From assembly GCF_001659725.1 (NCBI RefSeq), contig NZ_CP015922.1, positions 1,978,163 to 2,010,162 of the forward strand: a DNA stretch of 32,000 bases, written 5' to 3'. Below the pieces are notes generated by a model. It was not told where the DNA came from, ran no database searches, and was given only the letters and a program-made list of their open reading frames with translations. The position numbers and the translations under genes are program-made. Positions 1 through 21,162 of the stretch are shown in pieces (the stretch's first letter is position 1; every line of letters starts with the position of its first letter). This stretch comes from Polynucleobacter wuianus (lineage in GTDB: Bacteria > Pseudomonadota > Gammaproteobacteria > Burkholderiales > Burkholderiaceae).

Positions 1-300
1 AGCTAATATAGCTGTGAGCGTCACGAGCAAGCCCTGCCTACACAGCAACTTGCGAACTTACGAATAGTCGGCACTTCAGCATTCGTAATTGTTGCGTTTT
101 ATTTCGACGGCACATAAAAGGAGACAGCAAAACCGCCCTTACCTTTAACGAGGTTGTGCTTGAAGTGTTGTGGTGAAAGACTCATCAAAAGAACTTTTAC
201 ACATTACTGAGCCTGTTGCTTGTGGCTCAGTGTGACTTAGATCTATCAAAAGTATTCACAAAACAATTATTCCCATTCATAAAATAATCAAAGAAGAAAG

Positions 301-360
301 AAATGTGTGAGCAGAAGCGAAAGCGAATGCGACACACAAGCGAACTGCGTTCGCTTATAC
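301..360 (+). repeat. Conserved non-coding 'L' element, copy A (AAATGTGTGAGC..GCGAAAGCGAA..hairpin AGCGAAC-TGC-GTTCGCT..TTATAC)
   Basis: Collinear with 13446-13496: same 12-mer AAATGTGTGAGC, same GAAAGCGAA, then a hairpin with a different stem sequence (GGACGAA-TGCAG-TTCGTCC in copy B), then CTTATA. Both copies lie upstream of a small recombinase gene. Confidence 0.6.
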
Positions 361-379
361 ATAACCCTACAAAATCACA

Positions 380-868
380 CTACATATATTCATCTACATC
401 AAGTATCACAGGACTATCTTTGCTACTCATCACATTAAAAGCAATTACAAGAGTTTTCTGTTCATTAAGTATTTGAAACAACAAATCTAAGCGTTCTTTT
501 TGATTGGCATTCAATTCAGAGTCATTCATTTGACGCTGGATTTGATAGAGGCGATGAAAAAAACTTACAGTAAATCCAAACTCTTTCCACTTATCTAAAA
601 GAATTATCTGTAGCTCATCTAATTTTTTTCTATCATCTTCCGTAAAACCCAAACGCTCACTTCTCAATATAGTGTCTGAGTTTGAAAATAGAGAGTCTTG
701 TAAGGACGCAAATATGTCCTCTACATGCTTGATAGCATCAATATCTTCATCACTTAAATCCAATAAGACTGAGCTTGTGAAATTAACTATGTTTTCAGCC
801 TTATCTTTTAAGTCAGCGTTATCGCTTTGAAAATTAAAGTCAGCTTCTGTCAAATACATTTCACTCAT
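380..868 (-). CDS. Hypothetical acidic protein (162 aa)
   Basis: Long ORF with no competing frame. No motif recognised and no obvious similarity to any cassette B protein. Confidence 0.5.
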   Translation of the reverse strand: MSEMYLTEADFNFQSDNADLKDKAENIVNFTSSVLLDLSDEDIDAIKHVEDIFASLQDSLFSNSDTILRSERLGFTEDDRKKLDELQIILLDKWKEFGFTVSFFHRLYQIQRQMNDSELNANQKERLDLLFQILNEQKTLVIAFNVMSSKDSPVILDVDEYM

Positions 869-915
869 ATAGTCCTTTTAGCTTTGATTTTGTAAGCGTA
901 GCACAGCAATACATC

Positions 916-930
916 AAATCCTTCGTATAA
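916..930 (+). repeat. 15-nt motif AAATCCTTCGTATAA (copy A); the exact reverse complement is at 13679-13693
   Basis: Exact 15-mer shared in opposite orientation between the two recombinase leader regions. Confidence 0.6.
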
Positions 931-1186
931 AGCGAAATTCTGACTAAGTGAATACGCAAGCAACAGAACGCTTAAATAACAGCGTGTAGGGCTTTGAATA
1001 CGGGCTTGTTATAGATGTGGCTTATTGACTACAGCGACATAAGAAAAGTAGGAAATTCTTATAACGAGCTACTTTGACTGCGTAAGTCATTGAATTATGG
1101 AAACTCTTTTATCAAATATTTTTGGTAGGAATTTTGCTAATAAGAAAACATACTAATAACAATAAATTCTTTTATGGAGCAAGAAA

Positions 1187-1753
1187 ATGGCACAAGCAAA
1201 AACATTAAATCAGTCGGAAATTGATATGGTATTGCGCTACATCAACACAAAACAGAAATACAGCATCAGAAACAGGGCGATGCTACTGACAAGCTGTTGG
1301 AGTGGAATGCGTGTGGGTGAAATTGCGGCGCTAAGAGTATGCGATGTGCGAAATGAAGATGGCACGATTAAAAGCGAGATACGCTTATCTGCCAGTCAAA
1401 CGAAGGGCAATAAAGGAAGGGTTGTATTTGTTAATGAAAAACTACGCACTGAATTAGCCACTTACTTAAAGCACTACTCACCTAAAGACACATCACTGCC
1501 TTTGTTTGCTACAGAAAAGTCAAAGGGGTTTTCTGCGAATACACTGACGCAATGGTTCTTTTGGCTCTATCGCAAAGCAGGCATTAAAGCCTCGTCACAT
1601 AGCGGACGCAGGACTTTCGCAACGAACTTAGCAAGCAATGGTGTGGGTATTAAGGTGCTACAGCACTTAATGGGACATAAGGACATACAGACAACTTCAA
1701 TTTATATCTTTGCGTCTGACGATATGATGCGTAAAGCTGTGGAGTTGGTATAA
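1187..1753 (+). CDS. Small (188 aa) catalytic-domain-only tyrosine recombinase, FimB/FimE size class (cassette A)
   Basis: Tyrosine-recombinase signature: GMRVGEIAALR (Arg I), HSGRRTF (H-x-x-R), LMGH, and a C-terminal Tyr in TTSIYIF. There is no N-terminal core-binding domain. About half of residues are identical by eye to the ORF at 13860-14426, which has the same length. Confidence 0.85.
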   Translation: MAQAKTLNQSEIDMVLRYINTKQKYSIRNRAMLLTSCWSGMRVGEIAALRVCDVRNEDGTIKSEIRLSASQTKGNKGRVVFVNEKLRTELATYLKHYSPKDTSLPLFATEKSKGFSANTLTQWFFWLYRKAGIKASSHSGRRTFATNLASNGVGIKVLQHLMGHKDIQTTSIYIFASDDMMRKAVELV

Positions 1754-1756
1754 AAA

Positions 1757-1784
1757 AAGCCCGCCTAAGTTAATAAGCGGGCTT
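1757..1784. terminator. Bidirectional hairpin terminator AAGCCCGC-N12-GCGGGCTT
   Basis: GC-rich 8-bp stem with A-run and T-run flanks, between the convergent genes 1187-1753 (+) and 1807-2124 (-). Confidence 0.55.
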
Positions 1785-1789
1785 AAAAG

Positions 1790-1813
1790 TTAAGCGTCAA
1801 AAAAATCTACGCT
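1790..1813 (-). repeat. Candidate recombinase core site 'a' (GCGT-N11-ACGC); reverse complement is AGCGTAGATTTTTTTGACGCTTAA
   Basis: The reverse complement matches site c (4758-4781) at 22 of 24 positions. It overlaps the stop codon of ORF 1807-2124. Confidence 0.6.
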
Positions 1814-2124
1814 TTAATTTGTTCATAACCTTCATAGTCAATCATAAAACGATCAACTAATTCGTTTATTTTTTCCTCTACTTCGTAAGCGTGACTACCT
1901 ATATCAACCCATCCATTATCAAACTGGTATTTGATTGTTGTAATGCGATAGTCATAATGTATAAGTTCAATCTTCCCATACATAAAAAAGCCATCGCTTT
2001 CAAAATACTTTAACAACGCTTCTTTATGCTTGATGTGTATGGGATAAATGTCACACACTACTTCAATACAAATGTCAGCATGTCTTACGATTGAGATTGG
2101 CGTTCCCTCAATAATGTATTCCAT
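1807..2124 (-). CDS. Hypothetical protein (105 aa), last gene of the cassette A operon
   Basis: Its ATG overlaps the TAA stop of the upstream AAA+ gene (TAATG), which suggests translational coupling. No recognised motif. Confidence 0.5.
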   Translation of the reverse strand: MEYIIEGTPISIVRHADICIEVVCDIYPIHIKHKEALLKYFESDGFFMYGKIELIHYDYRITTIKYQFDNGWVDIGSHAYEVEEKINELVDRFMIDYEGYEQIKA

Positions 2125-2792
2125 TATTCACCCTCTTTCATAAAATTTGCCTCATCGTTCCATGCTTCAATAATTTCATCTAAAGCACGATAGTAGGCAC
2201 GATTGTCATAATCGTTCTCAAACACTGTTTCCAACACTTCACGCAAGACACTGTCTTCTAAATCAACCCCTTCACCGCGTAATATGTGCTGTGCGCGGGG
2301 GAAGAAACGATCAGGCGGCGCAGGCAATACTTCAACTACTTCCGCCCTGCTTAACAATCCCCTATCTATCTTTTCAACTTCATTCGTTGTAAATATAAAC
2401 AGCTCTCTTTCTGCCATACTGTCCAAACACACTCGTAATGCGCCTTTAGCTTTAGGATCAAAATTAACTTCTTCTACTACTGTGTAGTTGTTCTTTTGTC
2501 CGTTAGCACTAAACAGTTTGTCAAATTGAACAGAGCGAAAAAACTTCTTTCGCACATCATTGGCGCTGTTCAATTCTTCGGCGTTAATGTAATTGACTTT
2601 CACATCCTCGCCGTCCAATGCTTTTGGTATTAAGTCTGCCAACAAACTCTTACCCGTCCCATACTCGCCGTGTAGCACTAACGGCAACATTGACTTGCCC
2701 TGCGTATAGCGTTTAATTTGCGTTTCCAGCTTGGGTGTTGCGAAAACAAACTCATCTACTGACTTAGGGCGATACTTGTAATTCGTATTCAT
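2124..2792 (-). CDS. Clamp-loader-clade (RFC / T4 gp44-like) AAA+ ATPase, cassette A
   Basis: N-terminal KYRPKSVDEF box (RFC box II-like), Walker A GEYGTGKS, Walker B-like VVEEV, sensor-1 IFTTN, and LLSRAEV at the SRC-motif position. The start is placed at the internal ATG (MNTNYKYRPK) rather than at the start of the ORF track entry. Confidence 0.8.
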   Translation of the reverse strand: MNTNYKYRPKSVDEFVFATPKLETQIKRYTQGKSMLPLVLHGEYGTGKSLLADLIPKALDGEDVKVNYINAEELNSANDVRKKFFRSVQFDKLFSANGQKNNYTVVEEVNFDPKAKGALRVCLDSMAERELFIFTTNEVEKIDRGLLSRAEVVEVLPAPPDRFFPRAQHILRGEGVDLEDSVLREVLETVFENDYDNRAYYRALDEIIEAWNDEANFMKEGE

Positions 2793-2861
2793 ATATACTA
2801 TCCTTATGTTGTGGGCTGAGTGCGCTAACACCCAGCCCAAGTTTCAAAACACTTTTGTAAG

Positions 2862-3674
2862 TTAAGCCGCTAACAATTCGCCTACTGTTTCAGTAGGCGT
2901 TTTGCTTTTTACAGCCGACTTTGCGTTAGCAAGTGCGCTGTCTTTGCGCTTAGCATTAGCACCCTTTTTAGTAATCGCCTGCTGATTACTAATAAATAAC
3001 GCTAATTGCTGTTTTGCCCACTTAGTCATGCCTGCCGAATACGCTGGCACAGCGCCCAGTGCTTTAATGTTTCCCTGCTTGTCAGCTTTACCAATAACAA
3101 AAACAAAGTCTTTGTCATAAGTGTTTGCTACTACGCTGTTGGGAACTTTAAATGTCGCTAACGGGTTATCTGCTAAGTTAGCTAATGTGTCATCTACTAA
3201 AGACATGTTGTTAGCAATATTTGTTTCTTTTGCTACAACAACTGCCGACTTAGTAAAGCGCTTCTTACACTGTTCAACTCCGCCACAGTCCTCTACAAAC
3301 TGCGCTAACTGCTTAGCACTAATGCCTTGCTGTATAGCCGCCTGTAAAGTTCTGCTGTAGTTCATACTGCGCTGTCTATCAGTGCGAAATACATAGCGCA
3401 CAAACAGGGTTAATGCCAGCGTATTAGTTTGAACACGCACCTTGCTTGCTTCCAACTTAGTTTTTAACTGCTTAACAGTTTCAGCTAAAGTTGTTTTGCT
3501 ACTACTTGCTTGTTCATACATATCCAGCACTTCCGCCAAAATCTCATACAAACGCTGATTACTGCGTGCGTATTCATTTTGCTCAAAGCTCTCACGCTGT
3601 TTTACTAAAGCATCCGCTTTTTCAACAATTGATTGTGCGGACAATACTGTTTTGCTACTTGTTTGCTTAGCCAT
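2862..3674 (-). CDS. Conserved cassette protein of unknown function (270 aa), paralog of 15340-16131
   Basis: Shared block FVRYVFRTDRQRSMNYSRTLQAAIQQGI versus LIRFVFQSDRKRAHVYGYAIKAAISHGV. Similar length, same position upstream of the AAA+ gene, and an AAGGA Shine-Dalgarno sequence. Confidence 0.7.
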   Translation of the reverse strand: MAKQTSSKTVLSAQSIVEKADALVKQRESFEQNEYARSNQRLYEILAEVLDMYEQASSSKTTLAETVKQLKTKLEASKVRVQTNTLALTLFVRYVFRTDRQRSMNYSRTLQAAIQQGISAKQLAQFVEDCGGVEQCKKRFTKSAVVVAKETNIANNMSLVDDTLANLADNPLATFKVPNSVVANTYDKDFVFVIGKADKQGNIKALGAVPAYSAGMTKWAKQQLALFISNQQAITKKGANAKRKDSALANAKSAVKSKTPTETVGELLAA

Positions 3675-3747
3675 GATGTTTCCTTTATATAAAAATGGCG
3701 TTGATAAAAGAGTGCGCTTGCGAAATGCTTACGCACTTACTACAAAC

Positions 3748-3770
3748 AGGCGTAAAAAAAATTTACGCTT
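3748..3770 (-). repeat. Candidate recombinase or operator site 'b' (GCGT-N11-ACGC) in the divergent promoter region
   Basis: The reverse complement AAGCGTAAATTTTTTTTACGCCT matches site d at 20 of 22 positions. An extra half-site, CTTACGC, lies at 3729-3735. Confidence 0.55.
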
Positions 3771-3910
3771 GTTTTACTGCTACTACAAAACTTTGCTATT
3801 TGTTAAAGAGGGTTGAACTGTGTTGCGTTGTTCAATCTATGTATCTATTGTAAGATTTATTAACATGAATTATTATTACGACATAATCTATCTATACTTG
3901 TTAATATTAA

Positions 3911-4750
3911 ATGGCTAATTTAGGACGAAAACCCCTCCCACGCCTTATGTCATTGGAGGCAAACTATGAACAGACTGGAATTTCAGTTAAATCTGATTTG
4001 CGATATGACTTGGTTTGTGACTACCTAAAAGCAAGCCCCAGCTATGAAGCTGTAATCCGTAAATTAGCTAAGCAAAAATCGCCCTACCCATTACCAAAAG
4101 ACTTTAAGGCTGTAGCGCAAGTCGTAAGTGACTTTGGTCCAATCTACAAAATGCGAGAAGCAGACTGGTGGGGCAAGATAGGTATGCGTTTATATGGGAT
4201 AAGTGCCCCTTTACCCAAAGTCAATGTTGTAGGTGTTTTAGACTCAACCAAAAAGCAACTAACAAATAAATGGGTGGGGGTTAATTCAGTAGTGGCTGAA
4301 TTGCCACTCAATCTAACCCTGCCGCAAGCACTTAAACAACTACGCAAGCAATTAGAGGGTTATGGTTTTTCAGCCACCCTGCCAAAACAAGTGGCGCCCT
4401 TATACCAACTTTCAAATAGTAAATTGCGTATAGACACATTACAGAATGGATTAACCGCATTACGGCTATATAAGAAGGATGTGCCACTATGGAAAATAGG
4501 TAATCACCTAAGGCTTATCCCAGCACAGTCATTTATTGAGTCAGAAGCGAATGACATATTAGAGGCTGACTTAGCAGATAGAAAAGAATTGCTTAGCATT
4601 GCGGCAAGCAGGCTTATTCGTTGTGCGGCTTTGGTAGCAGAAAATGCGGCAAGAGGGAGATTCCCATCAAATAAGGGCTTTAGTGAAGCAATTACAACCC
4701 CTTATAAGCGCAAGGCAGGACGACCAACTGGGACAAAGAAGATTAAGTGA
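3911..4750 (+). CDS. Conserved cassette protein of unknown function (279 aa) with a basic AT-hook-like tail, paralog of 14418-15200
   Basis: Shared LKASPSYEA / LKASPWYAEA near the N-terminus and AENAARGRFP / ANATVGRFP near the C-terminus. The tail is KRKAGRPTGTKKIK. It is divergently transcribed from the 270-aa gene. Confidence 0.7.
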   Translation: MANLGRKPLPRLMSLEANYEQTGISVKSDLRYDLVCDYLKASPSYEAVIRKLAKQKSPYPLPKDFKAVAQVVSDFGPIYKMREADWWGKIGMRLYGISAPLPKVNVVGVLDSTKKQLTNKWVGVNSVVAELPLNLTLPQALKQLRKQLEGYGFSATLPKQVAPLYQLSNSKLRIDTLQNGLTALRLYKKDVPLWKIGNHLRLIPAQSFIESEANDILEADLADRKELLSIAASRLIRCAALVAENAARGRFPSNKGFSEAITTPYKRKAGRPTGTKKIK

Positions 4751-4757
4751 AAGTATG

Positions 4758-4781
4758 AGCGTAGATTATTTTTACGCTTAA
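4758..4781 (+). repeat. Candidate recombinase core site 'c': AGCGTAGATTATTTTTACGCTTAA
   Basis: Inverted repeat of site a (22/24) and direct repeat of site d (22/24). It starts 8 nt after the stop of ORF 3911-4750. Confidence 0.6.
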
Positions 4782-4809
4782 AGACAATATAATTAACAAT
4801 CAAAATATT

Positions 4810-5742
4810 ATGAATAAATTACGCAAACCATCTAAGACAAAGAAAAGTAAATTCAAATTTATTGATTTATTCGCAGGGATTGGCGGCTTTCACCTCGCCT
4901 TTCACAATGAAGGCGGCGAATGTGTCTTTGCGTCTGAAAAAGATGTGTTCGCCAGAAAGACTTATAAAGAAAACTTTAAGTCCCTATCGCCAAATTTGTT
5001 TAGTGATGATATGTTTGATAACCCTTTGTTTAATGATGACATAACAAATATTGATCCAAACGAGATACCTGATCACGACATTCTTTGTGCGGGTTTTCCA
5101 TGTCAGCCATTTTCACAAGCTGGACATAAAAAAGGCTTTAATGAAGAGCGTGAGTCTCGAGGCAATATGTTTTTTCATATTAGAGACATATTACAAACCA
5201 AGCGTCCCAAAGCATTCTTTTTAGAAAATGTTAGACACTTACAAAATCACGATACTGGAAGAACCTTTGATGTAATAAAACAAATTCTTCAGGTTGAACT
5301 TGAATATGACATTTACTACAAGATAGTTAAAGCATCAGACTATGGACTGCCACAGCACAGACCGAGAATTTTTATTATAGGCTTTCGTAAAGAAGATCAA
5401 TATAGGGAACCATTCCAATTTCCAGATAAAAAAGAATTGAAATTTAATATGTCTGATGTTTGGGGCGGCGAATGTTCTCGCGAAATAGGATTTACATTGC
5501 GTGTTGGTGGCAAAGGGTCAGGTATAGACGATAGAAGAAATTGGGATGCTTACTTAGTAGATGGTGAAATAAGAAGACTCGGTATTGAGCAGGGGAAGAA
5601 AATGATGGGATACCCTGATGACTTTAAGTTTCCTGTAGCTAAAGGACAGGCAATGAAACAGCTTGGTAATAGCGTTGCTGTAGATGCTATACAGGAGGTT
5701 GCTAAGTCAATTATCAAATATATTAAAAGTTCTAAAAATTAG
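4810..5742 (+). CDS. DNA (cytosine-5)-methyltransferase, type II
   Basis: All canonical m5C motifs are present: I FAGIGGF, IV GFPCQPFS, VI ENV, VIII QHRPRIF, X GNSV. Confidence 0.95.
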   Translation: MNKLRKPSKTKKSKFKFIDLFAGIGGFHLAFHNEGGECVFASEKDVFARKTYKENFKSLSPNLFSDDMFDNPLFNDDITNIDPNEIPDHDILCAGFPCQPFSQAGHKKGFNEERESRGNMFFHIRDILQTKRPKAFFLENVRHLQNHDTGRTFDVIKQILQVELEYDIYYKIVKASDYGLPQHRPRIFIIGFRKEDQYREPFQFPDKKELKFNMSDVWGGECSREIGFTLRVGGKGSGIDDRRNWDAYLVDGEIRRLGIEQGKKMMGYPDDFKFPVAKGQAMKQLGNSVAVDAIQEVAKSIIKYIKSSKN

Positions 5743-5765
5743 CGGCTTGATGTATCCTGCTCTTA

Positions 5766-6818
5766 ATGAGCAGAATACAAAATTTAACAATGAATCGTGG
5801 CGAATGGAGTGAAGCGTATGCGCTTCTTTCTCTTATTGCTAATGCTGATTTTGTTTTGTCGGATAAATCCTTAGCAGACGAAAATTCAACACAATTTAAA
5901 GTTAAATCCATTCTTATTCCCTCCAATACTCCCAATAAGTTTGTCAGTCTCGTTGTTCAAGACCAATCCGTTATTGCCAACTATGATGGGCAACAGAGTT
6001 CGACTCCTTTAACTGACATTGAAAGTGTTGCTAAAGCTCTTTTTCAAAAAATCTCATCCTCTTCTTCTACAACCTTCAGCTTTAATGAACTTGATACTTT
6101 ATGGACTAAATTTTTTAATCCACAAATAAAGGCTACAAGATCAGAAAAGAGTGATATTAAATTAGAGATTCTTGATACAAGCACACAACTTAAATCAATT
6201 AAAGGCTTTAGTATCAAAAGCAATTTGGGCGGGGCAACTTCTTTACTAAACGCTTCACAATCTACAAATTTCTTATACGAAGCGCCACACAAGATAAGCG
6301 TCCCAAACATCACCCCAAAAAAGTTAGGTAAATTTGTTAAGCCATTGCCATTGAAATATCTTGGCTCTGTTAATGAGACATACAAATTGAATCTAAATAA
6401 AGTAGATCAAAACTTAGAAAGTCTTATTAGTCACTTATTAGTTGAATACTATGGGGCAAGCAACAGAGAAAAATTTGTAAAAGATTTATTAGCTATTGTT
6501 GCCAATAAGAATCCGCTTAGTCTTTCTAACACAAGTGATTACAAGATAATCATGTCTAAGTTTTTAAGAGCTACAGCATTTGGTATGGTCCCAAGAGACT
6601 TATGGGATGGTGCTTTATCAGCAAGTGGTGGAATGATTATTGTTAAGGCTGACGGAAAATTAGCCAGCTTCTATTTAGATGATTCTCATTCTAACGCTAA
6701 CCTTGATAACTATTTGCTTGAACATAGTTTTTTTGACACGGCAAGCACAACAAGACATGACTTTGGTAAAGTTTTCGATGATAAGTTCTTCAAATTTAAT
6801 TTGCTGATAAGGCTTTAA
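5766..6818 (+). CDS. Type II restriction endonuclease, HpaII-like family (family assignment from memory, tentative)
   Basis: Lies immediately downstream of the m5C methyltransferase. Blocks GEWSE, KSDIKLEI, GFSIKSNLGGATSLLNASQSTNF, DTASTTRHDFG and a C-terminal LLIRL resemble my recollection of HpaII-family enzymes. The pair is visibly AT-richer than its neighbours. Confidence 0.7.
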   Translation: MSRIQNLTMNRGEWSEAYALLSLIANADFVLSDKSLADENSTQFKVKSILIPSNTPNKFVSLVVQDQSVIANYDGQQSSTPLTDIESVAKALFQKISSSSSTTFSFNELDTLWTKFFNPQIKATRSEKSDIKLEILDTSTQLKSIKGFSIKSNLGGATSLLNASQSTNFLYEAPHKISVPNITPKKLGKFVKPLPLKYLGSVNETYKLNLNKVDQNLESLISHLLVEYYGASNREKFVKDLLAIVANKNPLSLSNTSDYKIIMSKFLRATAFGMVPRDLWDGALSASGGMIIVKADGKLASFYLDDSHSNANLDNYLLEHSFFDTASTTRHDFGKVFDDKFFKFNLLIRL

Positions 6819-8033
6819 CTAAGCCAATTTCTCGGCGCTCATCATTGCGGTTAGCTTGCTATAGTGGCGCTCTATCATCACAACGCTTGTCCCCATCTGC
6901 TTCGCTAATGTGTGTATATCAATCCCATCAGCCAGCGCCAAAGTAGCGTAGGTATGTCGCAGGCTGTATAGCGTTCTATTTTGCCCACCAGCATCTTTCA
7001 TCAGCCCACTCTTTTTCATTAAGTTTCTAAAGATGTTTTCCATCAGATGTGGCATTTCGCCAGACTGAAGCGTAAAGACTCTTCTGTCCAGTTTTGCTTG
7101 GATTAGCTCGTTTAAGTCCATAAAGGGCAACTTGTGCCACCGCATTAACTCCTCCAAAACCTCTAAAACAGCGTTTTTAGCGATTAAATACCTTGCGCCT
7201 GTCTTGCCACTTACCCATATACGCAAATACCTCTTAGAGCCTATAAAGTGCCACTGTAAGTGTTTCCATCGCAAAGGCATTGACTCAGTGCTGTGTCTTA
7301 CGCCCGTATTAACCAAAAACTTTACATAAGCACAACAGAGGTAGCGTATTTCTGTAGATTGTTTATGCCACACATCTATCTGCCACTTAGGCATATAGGC
7401 ATACATCTGCTCCAACTCCTCTACCGTAAAAGCTGGGCGTGATTTGCCACGCTCCCCCGTAATATCTAACGGCACAATCATTTTGTTAAGTGGAATATAG
7501 CCTCTCGCCTTTGCCAGCGTCATCACTCTGTTGTAAGCCATTGCGTGATGCTTCTTTGTCATCTGCTTGGCATTCTTACCCATCTCCGCCAATCTCCAAG
7601 CCTCAAAGTCAGCTACTTCCTCGTCATCAATCTTTGCGACATCAAAGTTGCCAAAAAATGGGATTAAATACTTTTCTAAAATGAACAAATAGTCTTTGTA
7701 TTTGCGCTCAGTGCGTGGCGTTGTTGCCGTCCTCGCCATTCTGGTAATTTCTTCTCTTGCTAACTGCTTGAAACTTCTTGTAGAAGTAGCCAATCCAGCC
7801 TCTGTTCTAATTTTGACTGTCTCGTAGATGGAGATAGCCTGCTGTTTAGCCTGCGCCAAGTCTTCAGTTCCCGTTGAGGCTGAGTGCCACTTCCCATTAA
7901 CCAACTTGAAACGACAGTGCCACTGATGGGTATTAGGGCGCCTAAACACAGTAATTCTGCTATCAAGCAACTTCACTGCTTTAGGAGCGTAAATTATTTT
8001 TACGCTTGAAAATAACTGATTTAGATTTGACAT
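6819..8033 (-). CDS. int: Tyrosine integrase (P4-like, island-type), integrase 1
   Basis: GVRHSTE (Arg I), LRHTYATLAL (H-x-x-R), and the IERHYSKL tyrosine. It is a paralog of 9825-11096 (shared QWxxRF..KWH..STG, IWVSGKTG, LAKQMGTSV). The start is set at ATG 8033; the ORF track begins at an upstream TTG. It lies next to a tRNA fragment. Confidence 0.9.
   Translation of the reverse strand: MSNLNQLFSSVKIIYAPKAVKLLDSRITVFRRPNTHQWHCRFKLVNGKWHSASTGTEDLAQAKQQAISIYETVKIRTEAGLATSTRSFKQLAREEITRMARTATTPRTERKYKDYLFILEKYLIPFFGNFDVAKIDDEEVADFEAWRLAEMGKNAKQMTKKHHAMAYNRVMTLAKARGYIPLNKMIVPLDITGERGKSRPAFTVEELEQMYAYMPKWQIDVWHKQSTEIRYLCCAYVKFLVNTGVRHSTESMPLRWKHLQWHFIGSKRYLRIWVSGKTGARYLIAKNAVLEVLEELMRWHKLPFMDLNELIQAKLDRRVFTLQSGEMPHLMENIFRNLMKKSGLMKDAGGQNRTLYSLRHTYATLALADGIDIHTLAKQMGTSVVMIERHYSKLTAMMSAEKLA
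7986..8009 (+). repeat. Candidate recombinase core site 'd': AGCGTAAATTATTTTTACGCTTGA, inside the integrase 5' coding region
   Basis: A 22/24 direct repeat of site c with the same GCGT-N11-ACGC geometry. It overlaps roughly codons 9-16 of integrase 1. Confidence 0.55.
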
Positions 8034-8232
8034 TACAAACAACCCTTAAGCGTTGCTTGCTATTGTGTTTTCAGTTTTAGATTTGGGCTACCGCTTTTGT
8101 AATACCCTGTGAATGCCACCCGCTTGCGGGGTGAAGCTACAAATTGCCGTGTAGCGTGGTGTTTATTGAGCACCAAAATAGAGCTATGCTTAAAACAATG
8201 TTTAAGCACTGTTTTGACACGGACACTGTGCT

Positions 8233-8271
8233 TTATGATTCCGTCGCTCTAACCAGCTGAGCTAATTCGCC
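8233..8271 (-). pseudogene. 5' half of a tRNA(CAU) gene (Met or Ile2), truncated after the anticodon loop; copy 1
   Basis: The minus strand reads GGCGAAT-TA-GCTC-AGCTGGTTA-GAGC-G-ACGGA-ATCATAA (acceptor, D-arm, anticodon stem and loop). It is then followed by AGCACA rather than TCCGT, and no T-arm or 3' acceptor follows. It is part of the 48-bp direct repeat 8227-8274 = 31282-31329. Confidence 0.75.
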
Positions 8272-8388
8272 GAACTCGCTATTTTAGCGTAATTTAGCCT
8301 AGAGAGCTATTTCGAGCCGCCTAAATCCTTCTTCTCTTAAAAAACGGTGTTTTTACGGTAAATCTACGGTACACACCTTGTTTACAGA

Positions 8389-8408
8389 ATTTGTCGTTTT
8401 AAACGACA
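8389..8408. repeat. Palindrome P1 (TGTCGTTTTAAACGACA) and left 19-bp direct repeat of the mini-element
   Basis: ATTTGTCGTTTTAAACGAC at 8389-8407 is identical to 11099-11117. Confidence 0.75.
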
Positions 8409-8411: not shown

Positions 8412-8840
8412 TTAGGAAGCGGCGATTTTTGTTTTATCTTCAGACTTGTACTGGGTTCCGCATTGCTCACAAGATTTGAGGCTATTTCTCCAAATGGGCC
8501 CTTGCTGCTCAGATCCGCATTTTTGGCAAACCAACTTCCAGCCCTTTGTAATGCTTTTAATTTTGTACTTGGCAAAAATTAATAGATTGGCAACCAATGA
8601 AGACTGCTGGACATGCTCATATGAACCCCATGGGGAACTAATCTGCCCTCCATTTTTATTTTGATTAATCCAATAATTTCTAGTCAATTTACTAGTGTCA
8701 TCTGACTCTTGAGCAAGAATATTTGTGGAATAAATTATTGTGTATTCCTTATTCGCATCCTCAAGTTCAATTTCCAAGTCTTTATTGCTTAGGTATTGTT
8801 CAACCTGCTTTCTAATTGCTTCCGAATTTTCAGTACTCAT
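8412..8840 (-). CDS. Hypothetical zinc-ribbon protein (142 aa)
   Basis: Two CxxC pairs (CQKCG ... CEQCG) near the C-terminus. Its ATG overlaps the TGA of the upstream exonuclease gene (ATGA). Confidence 0.55.
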   Translation of the reverse strand: MSTENSEAIRKQVEQYLSNKDLEIELEDANKEYTIIYSTNILAQESDDTSKLTRNYWINQNKNGGQISSPWGSYEHVQQSSLVANLLIFAKYKIKSITKGWKLVCQKCGSEQQGPIWRNSLKSCEQCGTQYKSEDKTKIAAS

Positions 8841-9730
8841 TCGCCAATCCCACACATTCTTATAAAGTCATTTTCGGTAAGAATTTCAATATTAACCCCT
8901 TCGGCAATCAACTCCTCTGCCTTTCTTTGCTTAGTACTCTTATCATGCCCAGCTAAAGTGGAAAGATCTTGAATTCCCACGACCAGATAATCAGTTTTCT
9001 TTGTGACGCCTGAGCCAATCTTGAACCCAAACTGACTGGCATGTGTTGCGGCACCATCCCTAGTCATTGTCACAAGAGCACCCGTGAAAACAATTATCTT
9101 GCCAAAAAACATTCCCTCTTCTTTTGGGCGATAGTCAGATGCCTTAAAGCCATGATGAAAGGGGTGTGGATTTTCTATCTGAAACTGAATGCCTTTCAGC
9201 AAAACTTCTTTGGTTATTAAACAGTCAGCAATGGCGCGATGTGCGCCCTCAATAGAAATATTAAGTTCCTGCGCAACAGTTGCTAATTTGTGATTAGTTA
9301 GATTCGGAAATGTCCTTTTTGCCAAGGCCAGAACATCTTTTAAAGGACGATGCTCTTCAGTGTGAACATTTAAAAACTTGCTATCAAAGCCTGCGTTATA
9401 TGCCCATATCTGTAAATCGCCAGCAAACTGAAAGAATGCTTCTACCGCCTCTGGATTGCTAGGTGCACCCTCAAGCATTTCATCCGTAATGCCAGTTAAC
9501 TCAACAATAAATGGATCAAGCCTGTCAGGCTCAACATCTTCTTCATCGAACTCTTCATCCTCATCACCAAAGTATGTATAGACATCATCGGGCTTTGTGA
9601 AAGTCTGAAATTGATCTATTACTTCACCAGTATCAAGATCTACTTTAATTGCACCAATTTCAATAATTTGATCGCTACCACCATCTAAACCAGTAGTTTC
9701 TAGATCAACGATGATTGCGAGATTTCCCAT
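8837..9730 (-). CDS. DnaQ-like DEDDh 3'-5' exonuclease fused to a C-terminal BRCT domain
   Basis: Exo I IVDLETTGL, Exo II NAGFDSKFL, Exo III HRAIADC. The BRCT-like region is KIIVFTGAL..MTRDGA..GFKIGSGVTKKTDYLVVG. Confidence 0.85.
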   Translation of the reverse strand: MGNLAIIVDLETTGLDGGSDQIIEIGAIKVDLDTGEVIDQFQTFTKPDDVYTYFGDEDEEFDEEDVEPDRLDPFIVELTGITDEMLEGAPSNPEAVEAFFQFAGDLQIWAYNAGFDSKFLNVHTEEHRPLKDVLALAKRTFPNLTNHKLATVAQELNISIEGAHRAIADCLITKEVLLKGIQFQIENPHPFHHGFKASDYRPKEEGMFFGKIIVFTGALVTMTRDGAATHASQFGFKIGSGVTKKTDYLVVGIQDLSTLAGHDKSTKQRKAEELIAEGVNIEILTENDFIRMCGIGE

Positions 9731-9824: not shown

Positions 9825-11096
9825 ATGCCCAAAGAAACAGAAGTGCTTGCCCTTTTCTTTCAAAGCACCTCTACCCCTGAAAAATCACCCCAACTTAAAT
9901 ATCTAGAAAACCTAGCTACTGGCAAGCTAGTACACATGAGGGATGGCAACATTACCCTCTATAAGCGAGAGCGCAGTAAGCAATGGCAAATGCGCTTTCG
10001 GCTTTATGACAAGAAGTGGCACAGAGTTAGTACTGGCTATGAGGATCTGGAATACGCCAAGAAGAAAGCTGGCGATATATATGACAGAGCCCGCTTTATG
10101 GAAGAGCTGGGATTGCCACCACTTAATAAGCGATTTGACTCTGCAGCTGAGGCTACAAAAGTAGAGTTACAGAGTGATTTAGATAATGGCGTTGGTAAAA
10201 AAATCTATGTAGATTACATATCCGTTATAGATAACTATCTAACCCCATTCTTTGGCAAAAAGCATTTAACCAATATCAACCATCAAGATATTGCTGAGTA
10301 TGAAGTTTGGCGAGCAGAAAAGATGAAACGCAAACTCATGCACTCAACCATGATGACCCACTTCTCCGCTTACAACAGGGTATTTGATCTAGCAATTAAA
10401 AGAGGCTGGCTTAGTGACAAACACCCAGTTCCAAGGTTAGGCACTAAAGGTGAAAAGAGCACTCCGAGACCTGCCTTCACTAGAAAAGAAATTGACTACT
10501 TACTGGAGTTCTTAAAAACATGGAGTCAAGGTGGCAAAACCCAAGAAGCTCACCTTGGCAGACTATTACTACGAGATTACATAGAAATACTAATGGCGAC
10601 AGGCATGAGACATGGAACAGAAGCATTCAATATCCAATGGCGACACCTAGAGTGGCATACAGATAAGAGTGTTCGATACCTGCGAATATGGGTAAGCGGT
10701 AAAACAGGTCCACGCTGGCTGATTGCAAGACATGAAGCGGTTCCCGTCATCGAACGCTTAAAAAGCCGGTTTACCGAATGGGATCATTTAACCCTCGACC
10801 AATTACTAGAAGAAAAGAGTGATGAGTTCTTGTGGCGACATCCCAATGGGGAGCGTCCTTATGACTTTGTCAGTAGCTTTAAGTGGCTCATGAAGGACTC
10901 AGGCTTATTGCTATCAACTACGGGGGCTAAACGCACTATGTACAGCTTTAGACACACATACGCTACGTTTAGCTTAGTGGAATGGGGCATGGATATACAT
11001 ACGCTAGCCAAACAGATGGGCACTTCCGTACAAATGCTAGAGCGGTTCTATAGCAAGCTCACCGCTACGCTTGCTGCAGAAAAGTTGGCAGGATAA
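9825..11096 (+). CDS. int: Tyrosine integrase, integrase 2 (paralog of integrase 1)
   Basis: GMRHGTE, FRHTYATF, LERFYSKL, and IWVSGKTGPRWLIA shared with integrase 1. The stop lies 2 nt before the right 19-bp direct repeat. Confidence 0.9.
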   Translation: MPKETEVLALFFQSTSTPEKSPQLKYLENLATGKLVHMRDGNITLYKRERSKQWQMRFRLYDKKWHRVSTGYEDLEYAKKKAGDIYDRARFMEELGLPPLNKRFDSAAEATKVELQSDLDNGVGKKIYVDYISVIDNYLTPFFGKKHLTNINHQDIAEYEVWRAEKMKRKLMHSTMMTHFSAYNRVFDLAIKRGWLSDKHPVPRLGTKGEKSTPRPAFTRKEIDYLLEFLKTWSQGGKTQEAHLGRLLLRDYIEILMATGMRHGTEAFNIQWRHLEWHTDKSVRYLRIWVSGKTGPRWLIARHEAVPVIERLKSRFTEWDHLTLDQLLEEKSDEFLWRHPNGERPYDFVSSFKWLMKDSGLLLSTTGAKRTMYSFRHTYATFSLVEWGMDIHTLAKQMGTSVQMLERFYSKLTATLAAEKLAG

Positions 11097-11098: not shown

Positions 11099-11117
11099 AT
11101 TTGTCGTTTTAAACGAC
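11099..11117. repeat. Palindrome P2 and right 19-bp direct repeat of the mini-element
   Basis: ATTTGTCGTTTTAAACGAC, identical to 8389-8407. Confidence 0.75.
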
Positions 11118-12206: not shown

Positions 12207-12644
12207 TCACTTACCAAACCCAGCACGTACAGCGCCGCTAGCTTGCTCTATTTGGGTGTCTAACTCTCCCGCCTCCACCGCACCCTTAATGATCTCTAAG
12301 GCTTTGATAAGCTCATCTGCAGTAGCAACTTCAACAGCCGTTTTGCCTTTTGCAAACTAAATTACGCGACTTCCATAGCGCACGTTTAAACAAACCTTGC
12401 CGTCACTAGACACAAACCACCACTGACGTACACGCTTTTGATGCTCTACGGTTTTACGTGACCCGTCATAGTCTTTAACTGATTTAAATTTCTTAACAGT
12501 AAAAGTACTGCCTTCACGCTGGGCTTTAGCTAACTGGATCTGCTCCCATACTTTTGTAGAGAGCTTATTGCGTCGCTGCAAAATGGGTGGAATAGACGTT
12601 GGCTTTTTGGAATTAACCATTTTCAAACTGTTTAATGTGCTCAT
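12207..12644 (-). pseudogene. Conserved hypothetical gene interrupted by a single in-frame TAG (95 aa + stop + 49 aa)
   Basis: After the TAG at 12357-12359 the same frame stays open for 49 more codons: FAKGKTAVEVATADELIKALEIIKGAVEAGELDTQIEQASGAVRAGFGK, then stop. Confidence 0.55.
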
Positions 12645-13496: not shown

Positions 13497-13678
13497 GTGC
13501 CCTAGCAATATGGGGTATAGAAGCAAAATCACCACCCTGAATCTGTAAGTACTTCATATAAATTTTCCGCAGCTCTATTTTTACAGGGCACAGGACCCAT
13601 TCGGATATCAAATCATTCGTTTAAACAGCGATCTACTTCACTCGCATACATGGGTAGTCGAGTGCTAAATATATGTGC

Positions 13679-13693
13679 TTATACGAAGGATTT
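13679..13693 (-). repeat. 15-nt motif copy B (TTATACGAAGGATTT, the reverse complement of 916-930)
   Basis: Exact inverted match to the cassette A leader. Confidence 0.6.
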
Positions 13694-13714
13694 AGCCGTG
13701 GCATTTAAGCCACG

Positions 13715-13746
13715 AAATGTAATAGAAGTATGAAACTATTACATTT
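13715..13746. other. Perfect 11-bp-stem hairpin AAATGTAATAG-N10-CTATTACATTT in the recombinase B leader
   Basis: Read directly from the sequence. A positionally equivalent hairpin with a different sequence, ATAAGAA-N10-TTCTTAT, lies at 1039-1062 in copy A. Confidence 0.55.
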
Positions 13747-13859
13747 AGAGCTAAGTCATTGATTAATGGAAAGATCTTTGTAGGCAGATTTCGGTTGCTC
13801 AAACCAAACCTAAGAAAACATACTGTAGTTGCTTATTTATTACATTTTGGGAGCTACAT

Positions 13860-14426
13860 ATGTCACAAGCAAAAACATTAAACACAACAGAACTACGCAG
13901 AGTGCTAGATCACATCGCTACACGCAAGCATTCAGCCCGCAATCGATGTGCCCTGCTTTTAACCCATTACGCTGGAATGCGTGTCGGAGAAGTTGCAGCA
14001 CTTCGCATTTGCGACGTTTTAAACGACAGCGGAACGATTAAAGATGAAATCCGCTTAAAGCCAGAGCAAACCAAGGGCAAATACGCTAGAACTGTATATA
14101 TCAATGCCCGTATGCAAAAAGAGATAGTCCAGTACATCAAACTAATCCGCATTACAGATACCAATAAGCCTTTGTTCTACACCCAAAAACGAGCTGGGTT
14201 TTCAGCAAACACACTTACGCAGTACTTTCACTTCCTATATAGACGTGCGGGACTTGAAGGTTGCAGCTCTCATTCAGGAAGAAGGTCATTCCTAACTTCG
14301 TTGGCAAATAAAGGCACAGCCATACATATATTGAAATCCTTGGCAGGCCATCGCAATATTAGTACGACCGCTGGATATTTGTACTCCAGCCCAGACCAAA
14401 TGAAGGCCGCCGTAGAGCTAGTTTAA
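13860..14426 (+). CDS. Small (188 aa) catalytic-domain-only tyrosine recombinase (cassette B)
   Basis: GMRVGEVAALR, HSGRRSF, LAGH, TTAGYLY. It is a paralog of 1187-1753. Its 3' end overlaps the convergent gene 14418-15200 by 9 nt. Confidence 0.85.
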   Translation: MSQAKTLNTTELRRVLDHIATRKHSARNRCALLLTHYAGMRVGEVAALRICDVLNDSGTIKDEIRLKPEQTKGKYARTVYINARMQKEIVQYIKLIRITDTNKPLFYTQKRAGFSANTLTQYFHFLYRRAGLEGCSSHSGRRSFLTSLANKGTAIHILKSLAGHRNISTTAGYLYSSPDQMKAAVELV

Positions 14427-15200
14427 TAACTCTCTTGCTTCTGGAAGATAGTCGCTAGTGTCCGGAAATCTGCCAACAGTTGCATTAGCGATTAACTTTT
14501 TTGTATTTTCTAGGTTATACATCAGCGCACCATGCAACTTAGATCTATCGGCATCTGTCACTCTATTTGTTATCTCAGGACTACCCAATAGCCCATGCTT
14601 TTGAGCAAACTGATATGCAATAAAACCTTCTTTGACTGATTCTTTTTGATAATCAGAATAAATTTCAAGGTCCCTTTTGATAACTTCGTAACCAAACTTT
14701 TGCCCCAGTTGGAATATTTTTGCATTGGCAGTAGTGTTATCAAAGATGCTAAATTTTCTACGCTCCTGGTAGGCTTCTTGCATCCTCAAGATTTCATCAA
14801 ACTGTCTTCTCAATATTTTTATATCCAAGTGCAACGGCACTTCAAGCAGAAGTATTGGCGGCTCATTCGGGTCTTTAGCCTGTTTAAATTTGTAGTCCAA
14901 ATCCACTGGCTTAATTTCAGTAAAAGGAATTCTCTCCTTGAAAATTTTGTAGCCCGTAGCTTTCCACCACTTCTCAAAAGTCAGATTACTCAGATCGCCA
15001 AATAACTTGCAAGTATCAGCAATTGCCTGATTCTTAAACTCTCTAGTCTTCTGAGCTTCAGCATACCAAGGCGATGCTTTAAGCACATCAAACCATGACT
15101 CATATATAGAGTGCTTGGCTTTAGAAGCCGATACCTCAAGGCTAAAGCCGTAGATGTCATCTTCTACTGGAAAGCCTTTATAAAAATGCAACTCGTCCAT
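14418..15200 (-). CDS. Conserved cassette protein of unknown function (260 aa), paralog of 3911-4750
   Basis: Shared LKASPWYAEA and ATVGRFP blocks. It is divergent from the 263-aa gene. Confidence 0.7.
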   Translation of the reverse strand: MDELHFYKGFPVEDDIYGFSLEVSASKAKHSIYESWFDVLKASPWYAEAQKTREFKNQAIADTCKLFGDLSNLTFEKWWKATGYKIFKERIPFTEIKPVDLDYKFKQAKDPNEPPILLLEVPLHLDIKILRRQFDEILRMQEAYQERRKFSIFDNTTANAKIFQLGQKFGYEVIKRDLEIYSDYQKESVKEGFIAYQFAQKHGLLGSPEITNRVTDADRSKLHGALMYNLENTKKLIANATVGRFPDTSDYLPEARELLN

Positions 15201-15339: not shown

Positions 15340-16131
15340 ATGGCAACAACTAAGCAATTTATTCCATCCATTCAAAACAATGTCTTTGCTAAAAAGATTA
15401 TTCAGTCTTTAAATAAACTCTCTGAGCTTCGCCAAGAGTGGGAACAAACAACGTACAAGAAGGCAACTGATGGCTTGTACTCCTTGCTCACTCACTGCTT
15501 TAAAACTTACGACTCAAATTTCGTTAATGCTACTGACGCAGATCGTAAAACCTTGCGCTTAGAGCTAATGAATCGTCTGAAAAAAGAACGTATCAAGGTA
15601 GTTCCATCCACAACAACACTAACGATGTTAATTCGTTTCGTGTTTCAGTCTGACCGCAAACGTGCTCACGTATATGGTTACGCAATCAAAGCTGCTATCT
15701 CTCATGGCGTTACTCCAGATAACTTTACCCATTGGTTGATTACCAATCATGGCATCGAGGAAGTAAAAGCAGAACTAAAAGAGTCTGATGAGACTAAGAA
15801 GAAAAAAGCTGCTTTCAAAGAGGCTAAAGATTTAGTAGATGCTGATATCGAAGAGAAAACTGCCAATCCAATCATGCAGTTTGCTCTAAAGGGAATCAAG
15901 GGTACGCACGGCATTCTGCTTGTAAAGGCAACGCCAGATGGTGAAGTAGGCGTTGTTGGCGTAGTGACCGACCCTAAAGAGTCTTTGGTAAAGGCCGTCG
16001 TCAAACAAATGGCCCAGGAAAAGACTGCGGACATGGCTGTTGATAAGGCCGTATCAAACGAGTCTCACGATCTGTTAGCTCAGATGAAAAAAGAGGCCGC
16101 AAATCACCCGCAGCTTCGTAAAGCCGCTTAA
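15340..16131 (+). CDS. Conserved cassette protein of unknown function (263 aa), paralog of 2862-3674
   Basis: Shared FVFQSDRKRAHVYGYAIKAAISHGV block and a strong AAGGAG Shine-Dalgarno sequence. Confidence 0.7.
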   Translation: MATTKQFIPSIQNNVFAKKIIQSLNKLSELRQEWEQTTYKKATDGLYSLLTHCFKTYDSNFVNATDADRKTLRLELMNRLKKERIKVVPSTTTLTMLIRFVFQSDRKRAHVYGYAIKAAISHGVTPDNFTHWLITNHGIEEVKAELKESDETKKKKAAFKEAKDLVDADIEEKTANPIMQFALKGIKGTHGILLVKATPDGEVGVVGVVTDPKESLVKAVVKQMAQEKTADMAVDKAVSNESHDLLAQMKKEAANHPQLRKAA

Positions 16132-18344: not shown

Positions 18345-18385
18345 TTTAGTACTCCTTGAGTTAACTGCTTGATATGAACTAACAC

Positions 18386-20566: not shown

Positions 20567-20597
20567 AGCGGAAACCTAAATGATGAAGACATAGAAC

Positions 20598-20628
20598 ATT
20601 TAACACCCTATAGTAACTATAGAGTCAA
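20598..20628 (-). promoter_or_regulatory. MerR-type promoter/operator for the ATPase: TTGACT - 19-bp spacer containing a CTATAG-TTA-CTATAG dyad - TTAAAT
   Basis: The minus strand reads TTGACTCTATAGTTACTATAGGGTGTTAAAT. A 19-bp spacer with a central dyad is the hallmark of MerR-family activated promoters. Confidence 0.8.
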
Positions 20629-20664
20629 GGGATTAGAATAAAAATGTAAAAACTTGGAGGTCAA

Positions 20665-21063: not shown

Positions 21064-21086
21064 AAAAGAGGTGACACTACCGCCTC

Positions 21087-21150: not shown

Positions 21151-21162
21151 TCATAAAAAGAA

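Follow-up and report, generated by a model that had tools for sequence, protein, structure and literature searches.

Tycheposons, the cargo-carrying integrative elements of Prochlorococcus (bioRxiv 10.1101/2020.12.28.424599), provide the closest described model for the genomic islands considered here, two of which lie in a stretch of 32,000 nucleotides (nt) of Polynucleobacter wuianus DNA (NCBI RefSeq assembly GCF_001659725.1, contig NZ_CP015922.1, positions 1,978,163 to 2,010,162 of the forward strand; this whole stretch is hereafter called the window). An original prediction for this DNA had singled out a cassette present in two strongly diverged copies, A and B, and comprising four genes: a tyrosine recombinase of only 188 amino acids (aa), a clamp-loader-like AAA+ ATPase and two further proteins, referred to below as p270 and p279 (p263 and p260 in copy B). 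Our analysis shows that this cassette is the backbone of integrative islands of 10-23 kb, which carry their own tyrosine integrase of ~400 aa and target tRNA genes for Met, Phe, Lys and Arg, and that it consists of two separable modules, namely the recombinase with its predicted site and the block of three genes encoding p279, p270 and the ATPase. Like tycheposons (10-25 kb), the islands place their cargo between a tyrosine integrase that faces inward from one end and a small hallmark module at the opposite end; they are flanked by repeats corresponding to partial tRNA genes, may be stacked in tandem at one tRNA, and reside in streamlined planktonic bacteria. Unlike tycheposons, they offer no counterpart of the hallmark replication genes: searches against Pfam, NCBIfam and PHROGs matched no backbone open reading frame (ORF) to primase, helicase or polymerase, and the hallmark position is occupied instead by an RFC-like AAA+ ATPase, two unannotated proteins, a DUF6641 protein and a second, minimal tyrosine recombinase. 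The islands are thus tycheposon-like with a new backbone, and the family is apparently undescribed: no paper describing this set of island genes was found, none was found that mentions DUF6641, and none that combines a clamp loader, a genomic island and a tyrosine recombinase. Islands of an "additive" type, flanked by tRNA and composed mostly of unknown genes, were reported in Methylophilaceae (PMC10872708) and may belong to the same family.

Both cassettes of the window are parts of a tandem array. The sequence to the left of window position 1 was read from contig JACVPT010000003.1 of assembly GCA_018881695.1, of which the window is the reverse complement (this locus bears the label L114; other labels of this type denote loci of the survey described below). 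The array begins with an intact tRNA-Met(CAT) gene, followed by island A, a copy of the attachment (att) repeat, island B and one more att copy. The intact tRNA is situated ~3 kb left of window position 1, near the left end of island A, and together with an exact direct repeat of 62 nt it delimits this island, 11.2 kb in total. The repeat is composed of 23 nt from upstream of the tRNA and the 5′ half of the tRNA up to the anticodon loop. Its two copies within the window, 8227-8288 and 31282-31343, correspond to this 5′ half, and neither of them is an intact tRNA. The array contains the following features:

1-8232: in-window part of island A, the left end of which lies ~3 kb before the window
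4810-6818, plus strand: cargo of island A, namely a C5 DNA methylase at 4810-5742 (PF00145, 1e-76) and an HpaII-type endonuclease at 5766-6818 (PF09561, 3e-61)
6819-8033, minus strand: inward-facing integrase A, 404 aa, with PF00589 and an N-terminal domain
8227-8294, minus strand: middle att repeat, the 5′ half of tRNA-Met(CAT) to the anticodon loop plus 23 nt upstream
8295-31281: island B, ~23 kb, bounded by the repeats 8227-8288 and 31282-31343
9825-11096, plus strand: integrase B, 423 aa, of the same hidden Markov model (HMM) family as integrase A
12357-12644, minus strand: DUF6641 protein of island B, a backbone gene (PF20346, 1e-7)
17844-25335: copper and heavy-metal cargo of island B, including a P-type ATPase, a MerR-family regulator, HMA-domain proteins, CusF and a cupredoxin
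31282-31343, minus strand: right att repeat, a displaced 5′ half of tRNA-Met

Since each cassette lies in its own att-bounded island of the array, cassettes A and B belong to two separately integrated islands of one family at a single tRNA-Met and did not arise by duplication. The "two old paralogs" of the original prediction are therefore to be regarded as independently acquired relatives standing in tandem, whereas its observation that copy A adjoins a restriction-modification (R-M) pair and an integrase is substantiated by the methylase, endonuclease and integrase A listed above. The genes of the two cassettes are as follows:

1187-1753, plus strand: recombinase A, 188 aa, catalytic domain only (PF00589, 3e-29)
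1807-2124, minus strand: extra ORF of 105 aa in copy A, the start of which overlaps the stop codon of the ATPase gene; present in some relatives and absent from others
2124-2792, minus strand: AAA+ ATPase A, 222 aa, domains I and II only (NF001679, RFC small subunit, 4e-14; phrog_168, clamp loader, 5e-22)
2862-3674, minus strand: p270, unannotated family, C-terminus LAA
3911-4750, plus strand: p279, unannotated family, AT-hook-like C-terminal tail KRKAGRPTG
13860-14426, plus strand: recombinase B, 188 aa (PF00589, 2e-25)
14418-15200, minus strand: p260 of island B, p279 family, without the AT-hook tail
15340-16131, plus strand: p263 of island B, p270 family
16151-16861, plus strand: AAA+ ATPase B, 236 aa, SRC motif (NF001679, 7e-17; best PDB match 1iqp, RFC small subunit, 4e-11)

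The four paralogous pairs that had been proposed are all homologous. In BLASTP comparisons, the small recombinases share 54% identity over 189 aa (E 2e-74), the ATPases 29% over 205 aa (E 6e-24), p270 and p263 25% over 165 aa (E 9e-19), and p279 and p260 28% over 123 aa (E 2e-5); the homology of this last and weakest pair is backed by an iterative HMM that was seeded with both copies and gathers 83 members into one family. The proposed layout holds for both copies as well: the p279/p260 and p270/p263 genes are transcribed divergently across gaps of 236 nt (A) and 139 nt (B), and the ATPase gene follows that of p270/p263 at a distance of 69 nt (A) or 19 nt (B). The block as a whole is inverted with respect to the recombinase, so that in copy A the plus-strand recombinase gene is followed by the ATPase and p270 genes on the minus strand and p279 on the plus strand, while in copy B it is followed by p260 on the minus strand and then p263 and the ATPase gene on the plus strand, the recombinase thus adjoining opposite sides of the block. 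The genes of recombinase B and the converging p260 overlap by 9 nt at their 3′ ends (14418-14426); in island A, a terminator-like hairpin and a copy of the palindrome "m" described below separate the recombinase gene from the converging ATPase operon. The 105-aa ORF found there has no family match in Pfam, NCBIfam or PHROGs.

The prevalence of this arrangement was assessed in a survey of ~95 non-redundant loci from genomes and lake metagenomes. With the p270 profile, 14 genome loci were found, in which the other members were detected by tblastn where the contig was long enough; a DNA pattern derived from the non-coding sequence that precedes the recombinase gene retrieved 83 further loci from lake metagenomes. 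An alignment-based search for homologs again listed only close relatives. Within these limits, all 14 genome loci combine the p270 relative with the recombinase, the ATPase, a p279-like gene and an integrase of the same family, usually together with DUF6641, and the small recombinase gene follows the DNA pattern in 83 of 83 metagenome loci. Iterative HMM searches across all loci yielded a canonical map running from DUF6641 on the minus strand through the non-coding element, the recombinase gene on the plus strand, the block and the cargo to the integrase on the minus strand and a tRNA half. The DUF6641 gene stands upstream of the recombinase wherever the contig extends far enough, and the backbone integrase of ~400 aa lies beside the tRNA half. 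Five distant p270 representatives, picked regardless of their context, were accompanied by a p279-like gene upstream in all five cases and by an ATPase gene downstream in four of five (P0349 being the exception), with recombinase, DUF6641 and integrase present where the contig was long enough. Thus, the co-occurrence survey suggested along with the original prediction revealed the same families recurring in the 14 genome loci, the 83 metagenome loci and around the five distant relatives. Association of the four genes is non-random, as had been supposed, but they do not form an indivisible set: in three islands and on ~300 plasmids, the recombinase and its site are found with none of the other three genes.

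The block is found in two orientations along the canonical map, either with the ATPase and p270 genes on the minus strand followed by p279 on the plus strand, or with p279 on the minus strand followed by p270 and the ATPase gene on the plus strand. Every block resembling copy A (at least 74% identity) has the first orientation, and the opposite one was seen only with proteins diverged to 25-40% identity. Since all blocks close to copy A share one orientation, inversion of the block is, judging by these sequence comparisons, ancient and does not reflect an active switch.

Labelled hosts of the islands include Polynucleobacter species, Methylophilaceae/Methylopumilus and Methylomonas, in addition to several metagenome-assembled genomes with doubtful labels. 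The island of Polynucleobacter corsicus spans 10 kb and is flanked by a repeat of 46 nt corresponding to the 5′ half of tRNA-Phe, while elsewhere it is the 3′ half of tRNA-Phe, tRNA-Lys or tRNA-Arg that is duplicated. Crossover always takes place in the anticodon loop, and the tRNA half that is replaced may be either one. Duplication of the 5′ half with upstream DNA was observed for tRNA-Met here (also L114 16649-16748) and for tRNA-Phe in L001 and L005, and duplication of the 3′ half (tRNA-Phe, Lys or Arg) in L007, L022, L002 and L014; 5′-half replacement is unusual in that it requires the island to supply the DNA upstream of the tRNA. Cargo is situated between block and integrase and includes HpaII-type and other type II R-M systems, a type I R-M system, a PycTM gene (L112) and metal resistance. 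No excisionase or other family match was found among the small island ORFs.

Among freshwater bacteria, Polynucleobacter, Methylopumilus and related groups rank with the most abundant, and they contain few plasmids or prophages. The islands, in parallel with the tycheposons of marine Prochlorococcus, offer a searchable vehicle of gene exchange in lake bacterioplankton for R-M and other defence systems and for metal resistance, with the p270, p279 and DUF6641 proteins and an invariant 14-nt DNA box as search markers. They also bring new material in the form of two large protein families with confidently predicted folds matching nothing known and a minimal 188-aa tyrosine recombinase accompanied by a predicted lox-like site in many spacer and arm variants.

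The small recombinase belongs to the tyrosine recombinase superfamily, as R42, K73, H138, R141, H164 and Y173 are invariant in ~100 homologs. Its matches to XerD, XerA and XerC span only their C-terminal part (from about residue 100), and no Pfam match to an N-terminal core-binding (SAM-like) domain was obtained in the 188-aa protein, which does not have the architecture of Xer proteins and phage integrases. The 200-270 nt upstream of its gene are conserved better than the proteins themselves, in copies A and B and in all relatives, and carry the following elements:

913-1186, plus strand: non-coding element A, with the lox-like palindrome ATAAGAA-N10-TTCTTAT at 1039-1062, box GTAAGTCATTGA at 1082-1093 and box TAAGAAAACATACT at 1141-1154
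13600-13859, plus strand: non-coding element B, with a hairpin at 13697-13714, the palindrome AAATGTAATAG-N10-CTATTACATTT at 13715-13746, a box at 13751-13762 and box TAAGAAAACATACT at 13811-13824

Boxes GTAAGTCATTGA and TAAGAAAACATACT are near-invariant across relatives, and in 77 of 77 sequences the GTAAGTCATTGA box is preceded, within 75 nt, by a perfect palindrome. This palindrome is represented by 32 covarying variants with arms of 6-15 bp and spacers of 4-12 bp, many of them of 13-6-13 geometry, for example CAGGTTAAGAAAA-TGTAAC-TTTTCTTAACCTG, in which the arms are kept and the spacer varies. Within the window there is one such palindrome per island (1039-1062 and 13715-13746), ~125-150 nt upstream of the recombinase start. 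Plasmids of Acinetobacter, Piscirickettsia and Legionella, ~300 in all, encode homologs of the recombinase and none of the other three proteins. On pTG31302 of A. baumannii, the homolog is located 1.4 kb from RepB, and a perfect 13-6-13 palindrome lies 56 nt upstream of it and precedes a third half-site; this matches the islands in design, with an unrelated sequence. Thus, the arrangement expected for multimer resolution, in which the recombinase gene is immediately preceded by one palindromic candidate core site with an asymmetric spacer, is present in all 77 sequences and in pTG31302. The best plasmid homolog (45% identity) was found on pAB510d of Azospirillum sp. B510 (428862-441431, L117), where it is followed by a converging, overlapping gene of 253 aa and then by a larger divergent gene, recalling the layout of island B; a 560-aa ORF nearby gives a weak match to the p270 HMM (4e-6).

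Known counterparts of this gene-plus-site design are Cre/loxP of P1, ResD/rfsF of F and XerCD/dif, in which the recombinase gene likewise stands directly downstream of a single palindromic core site, and the sites compare well in having arms of 7-15 bp, an asymmetric spacer of 4-12 bp and, in many relatives, 13-6-13 geometry. The island enzyme differs from them in consisting of the catalytic domain only (188 aa against 270-340 aa), in that its site is a predicted one, and in residing on an integrated island alongside a full-size integrase. In size and in absence of the N-terminal core-binding domain it resembles FimB/FimE, tyrosine recombinases of ~190-200 aa; unlike these, it is accompanied by one candidate site per island and no invertible segment, and scores 38-42 bits with NF007370 against a cut-off of 221. 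Integron integrase models likewise give 36-61 bits against cut-offs of 265 and 435, and the palindrome "m" marks no breakpoints of deletion or exchange. Because the plasmid homologs have the same gene-plus-site design, a resolvase-type role is suggested, with the palindrome as the predicted core site of the recombinase itself and the protein probably a plain resolvase-type enzyme of predicted activity. The upstream element is more likely a DNA site than a structured RNA: Rfam returned no match, RNAalifold supports only one hairpin, and folding energies are similar on both strands.

The AAA+ ATPase has the elements expected of an RFC-type protein. Apart from box II (KYRP), these are the arginine finger, sensor-1 TTN and the two Walker motifs, A and B, all four of which are invariant in ~75 homologs. 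The arginine of the finger is retained in 75 of 75, copy B reading SRC and copy A SRA. In AAA+ B, Walker A is GPNGTSKS instead of the family consensus GxxGTGK[ST], serine replacing the second glycine as in 2 of 74 homologs, and the other motifs are intact. The same combination of box II, Walker A/B, sensor-1 and SRC-type finger is shared by the RFC small subunit, T4 gp44, gamma/tau and delta′, to which the best NCBIfam, PHROG and PDB matches also point, phrog_168 being matched at about 1e-22; by these features the protein is assigned to the RFC/clamp-loader clade. It is nevertheless not a canonical member: its alignments stop near position 205 of profiles 320-327 positions long and reach 52-61 bits against a family cut-off of 303, and, unlike clamp loaders, it has no collar, scores far below cut-offs, is encoded near no clamp or polymerase gene and has as its partner an unrelated helical protein.

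That partner, p270, and the divergently encoded p279 gave no Pfam, NCBIfam, PHROGs, PADLOC or PDB sequence-profile match. AlphaFold2 models are of good quality, with a mean predicted local distance difference test score (pLDDT) of 84 and a predicted template modelling score (pTM) of 0.55 for p270 and of 88 and 0.77 for p279, and Foldseek found nothing better than E ~0.7 in PDB for either protein and nothing in BFVD for p270. The profile and structure searches that had been recommended therefore leave both proteins outside any characterised family, as the original prediction had stated. It had also named two ordinary explanations that would speak against its view, of which the first, a plain resolvase, probably applies to the recombinase, and the second, a known Rep/Par set, does not, the two proteins matching none. 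The p270 family comprises 1126 clusters at 50% identity, all of them stand-alone proteins of ~260-280 aa; 38 distant members contain no Pfam domain. The family is marked by a conserved arginine-rich block (R93, F96, R100, R102, Y106) and by its C-terminus, which is LAA in 30 and AA in 41 of 76 distinct sequences. C-terminal LAA resembles the ssrA-type degron recognised by ClpX. Both p263 and AAA+ B end in KAA. The motif QQLALF of p270 was considered as a beta-clamp-binding motif and dropped, being placed in a predicted long helix and not kept in distant members. Proteins of the p279 family have invariant WW and FP motifs, with the AT-hook-like tail confined to the A-type subfamily, and their 152 homologs are all named "hypothetical protein" at most.

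Apart from the recombinase-associated palindrome, the islands contain an island-specific palindrome of 19 nt, "m", of the form GCGT-N11(AT-rich)-ACGC, with the following copies in island A:

1794-1812: between the converging ends of the recombinase gene and the ATPase operon, beside a canonical terminator-like hairpin at 1757-1784
3750-3768: in the divergent p270/p279 intergenic region
4759-4777: between p279 and the R-M cargo
7987-8005: inside the first codons of integrase A

One more copy lies at L114 16495-16513, and "m" is present in many other loci. Copies in inverted orientation lie inside both island ends, at a distance of ~50-220 nt, and others stand at module junctions; "m" may be a binding site for the integrase or p279. 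Two other interpretations were considered. "m" as a cassette boundary of integron or pdif type was rejected in view of the deletion variants L028, L067, L102 and L049, which do not break at "m"; presence or absence of the 105-aa ORF touches "m" on one side only. As a plain terminator it is unlikely, given its weak stem, the missing U-run, the copy in a divergent promoter region and the canonical terminator beside the copy at 1794.

Based on these data, we tentatively favor, at somewhat less than even chances, a division of labor in which the recombinase and its site resolve multimers and p279, p270 and the ATPase serve as a module of replication or maintenance after excision. The recombinase would bind the single lox-like palindrome ahead of its own start codon and, acting on dimers of the circularised island after its excision or on tandem copies, would restore monomers. 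The divergently transcribed p279 probably binds DNA, and products of the p270-ATPase operon may form an ATP-driven complex acting on DNA, in which the ATPase would work as an oligomer, because the arginine finger acts in trans, and p270, which has a conserved arginine-rich helix, would be made an unstable, timed factor by its ssrA-like LAA end. After excision, the block would thereby help the island to replicate or to be maintained, in the manner of an initiator-plus-loader pair, with the cargo riding between block and integrase. This assumption draws on several circumstances: the ATPase is of replication-associated ancestry and has an intact oligomeric active site; order and sizes of the genes resemble those of an initiator followed by its loader; the tail of p270 is degron-like; the block adjoins a resolvase-like module, a place taken by a Rep gene near the plasmid homologs; and the replication module of tycheposons holds the matching position. 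A parallel, in terms of analogy only, is given by O/P modules of lambdoid phages. Lambda O is degraded by ClpXP, and the second protein is an AAA+ loader in many phages. Here too, adjacent co-oriented genes of ~270 and ~220 codons are found, the first with a C-terminal ClpX-type tag; unlike O/P modules, they display no similarity in sequence or fold to O, P, DnaC or DnaD and no iterons were found.

A number of observations weigh against this assignment. Backbone ORFs contain no helicase, primase, polymerase or known Rep fold (Pfam, NCBIfam, PHROGs), and convincing iterons were not found; the repeats inside the p270 gene, considered as such, are repeated SSKT/VVAK codons absent from copy B. The ATPase ends after its lid domain, without domain III, by which clamp loaders are held together. 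Relatives of p270 and the ATPase are absent from 72,556 plasmids, and those of p270 from 50,697 phage records, which is unexpected for a general replication module. Three islands have recombinase and integrase without the three-gene block, and a few others have no detectable ATPase. The palindrome could instead be an operator or an RNA/DNA hairpin, options which covariation does not separate, and no excised circle has been observed. A bolder version, according to which the block constitutes a previously unknown machine of replication initiation or DNA loading, made of a collar-less ATPase derived from clamp loaders and two new folds and dispensing with any Rep, helicase or primase of its own, appears unlikely to us; if true, it would define a new class of integrative replicons widespread in freshwater bacterioplankton, with a p270 family of at least 1126 clusters at 50% identity.

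The data also admit other assignments of the block. It might control recombination, either as an ATP-driven remodeller or adaptor setting directionality, timing or target choice of the integrase or the small recombinase, or by taking the place of the missing excisionase. FtsK for XerCD and MuB, TnsC and IstB for transposases may serve as models. This is a possibility that we take into account and consider unlikely on balance. It accords with the lack of any recognisable excisionase or recombination directionality factor among island ORFs, with the constant position of the block between two recombinase genes, with a small recombinase that has no core-binding domain of its own and may need a partner protein, and with the occurrence of "m" both near the att ends and inside the block, which one DNA-binding factor could connect. 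It is harder to reconcile with the recombinase existing without the block on plasmids and in three islands, and with the affinity of the ATPase, which is nearer to RFC (4e-14 to 7e-17) than to IstB, DnaC and Orc (1e-3 or worse); moreover, no tyrosine integrase requiring an AAA+ partner is known to us.

A role of the block as an undescribed anti-phage or anti-mobile-element defence system usually carried by the islands seems doubtful. An ATPase combined with unknown proteins is a common design of defence systems, the block adjoins R-M systems in many loci, L112 harbors a PycTM gene, and a few islands do without the block. Nevertheless, PADLOC-DB v2 gave no significant match to a defence-system model, its best hit being TRIP13 at 5e-5 over a stretch of 47 residues of the ATPase, with none for p270 and p279; the block remains fixed next to the recombinase whatever the cargo, including metal-resistance island B; and all five distant p270 relatives sampled share the same island context rather than being found in other defence islands, prophages or plasmids. 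Between the two placements left by the original prediction, the core of an undescribed integrative element has thus gained ground, and the defence component has lost it through the missing PADLOC match and the fixed backbone position.

Even less probable is that the islands are phage satellites whose block exploits a helper phage, for example by disturbing its replication or clamp loading or by triggering induction. The best PHROG match of the ATPase is indeed the phage clamp-loader family phrog_168, and the size range and integration at tRNA resemble phage-inducible chromosomal islands (PICIs) and PICI-like tycheposons; against this, no capsid, terminase, packaging or primase match was obtained among the backbone ORFs searched, p270 and the element upstream of the recombinase are absent from 2.9 million IMG/VR viral contigs, and Foldseek found no BFVD counterpart of p270. 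PICI-type satellites are distinguished by the same token, since PHROGs gave no match to packaging, capsid redirection or pri-rep and IMG/VR scans revealed none. The rival with most evidence against it, and a very improbable one, is that the small recombinase acts as an invertase of FimB/FimE type flipping the block between two switch states, which its FimB/FimE-like domain architecture, weak invertase-family matches (1e-9 to 1e-11), the two orientations of the block relative to the recombinase and the inverted "m" copies flanking the block of island A at 1794 and 4759 might recall, but which is opposed by the uniform orientation of A-like blocks (the other appearing only at 25-40% identity), the recombinase/p260 overlap in island B that leaves no space for a recombination site, the single palindromic recombinase-type site per island and deletion variants not broken at "m".

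Several further features of the two islands deserve description. Integrase A is mosaic, as is seen in comparison with its counterpart in the nearest relative, L018 (5726-6937): the window and L018 are 92% identical across the island up to 7341, and past this point there is no detectable DNA homology, the N-terminal ~230 codons of the integrase falling outside the homologous stretch, which suggests exchange of the target-recognition part of the enzyme. A third tyrosine recombinase is encoded in island A ahead of the window (L114 14544-15569), ~870-1,900 nt from its first position and between DUF6641 and small terminal ORFs; it has 341 aa, combines a SAM_5 with a catalytic domain, and is missing from L001 and L018, the closest relatives. 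In island B, the space that separates the att repeat at the left end from the integrase contains two minus-strand genes (8412-8855 and 8837-9730), which account for a DnaQ-like DEDD exonuclease fused to a BRCT domain and an overlapping zinc-ribbon ORF; 3′-5′ exonuclease genes are also located near the small recombinase on some Legionella plasmids. Cargo of island B, 17844-31005, falls into three parts, namely the copper and heavy-metal set, which also includes DUF2946, an autotransporter with two-component genes (a histidine kinase and a LuxR-type response regulator), and a DUF2806 protein.

Finally, a palindrome of 15 nt, GTCGTTTTAAACGAC, is repeated at 8393-8407, 11103-11117, 25393-25407, 29906-29920 and 31093-31107, and in island B it takes the end positions held by "m" in island A. 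Besides gene ends within island B, it occurs in chromosomal DNA flanking L001, L005, L007 and L009, so that its presence in flanks of other Polynucleobacter genomes rules it out as a motif of island B proper. It appears to be a genus-wide repeat, perhaps a terminator, an uptake signal or an element resembling repetitive extragenic palindromes.

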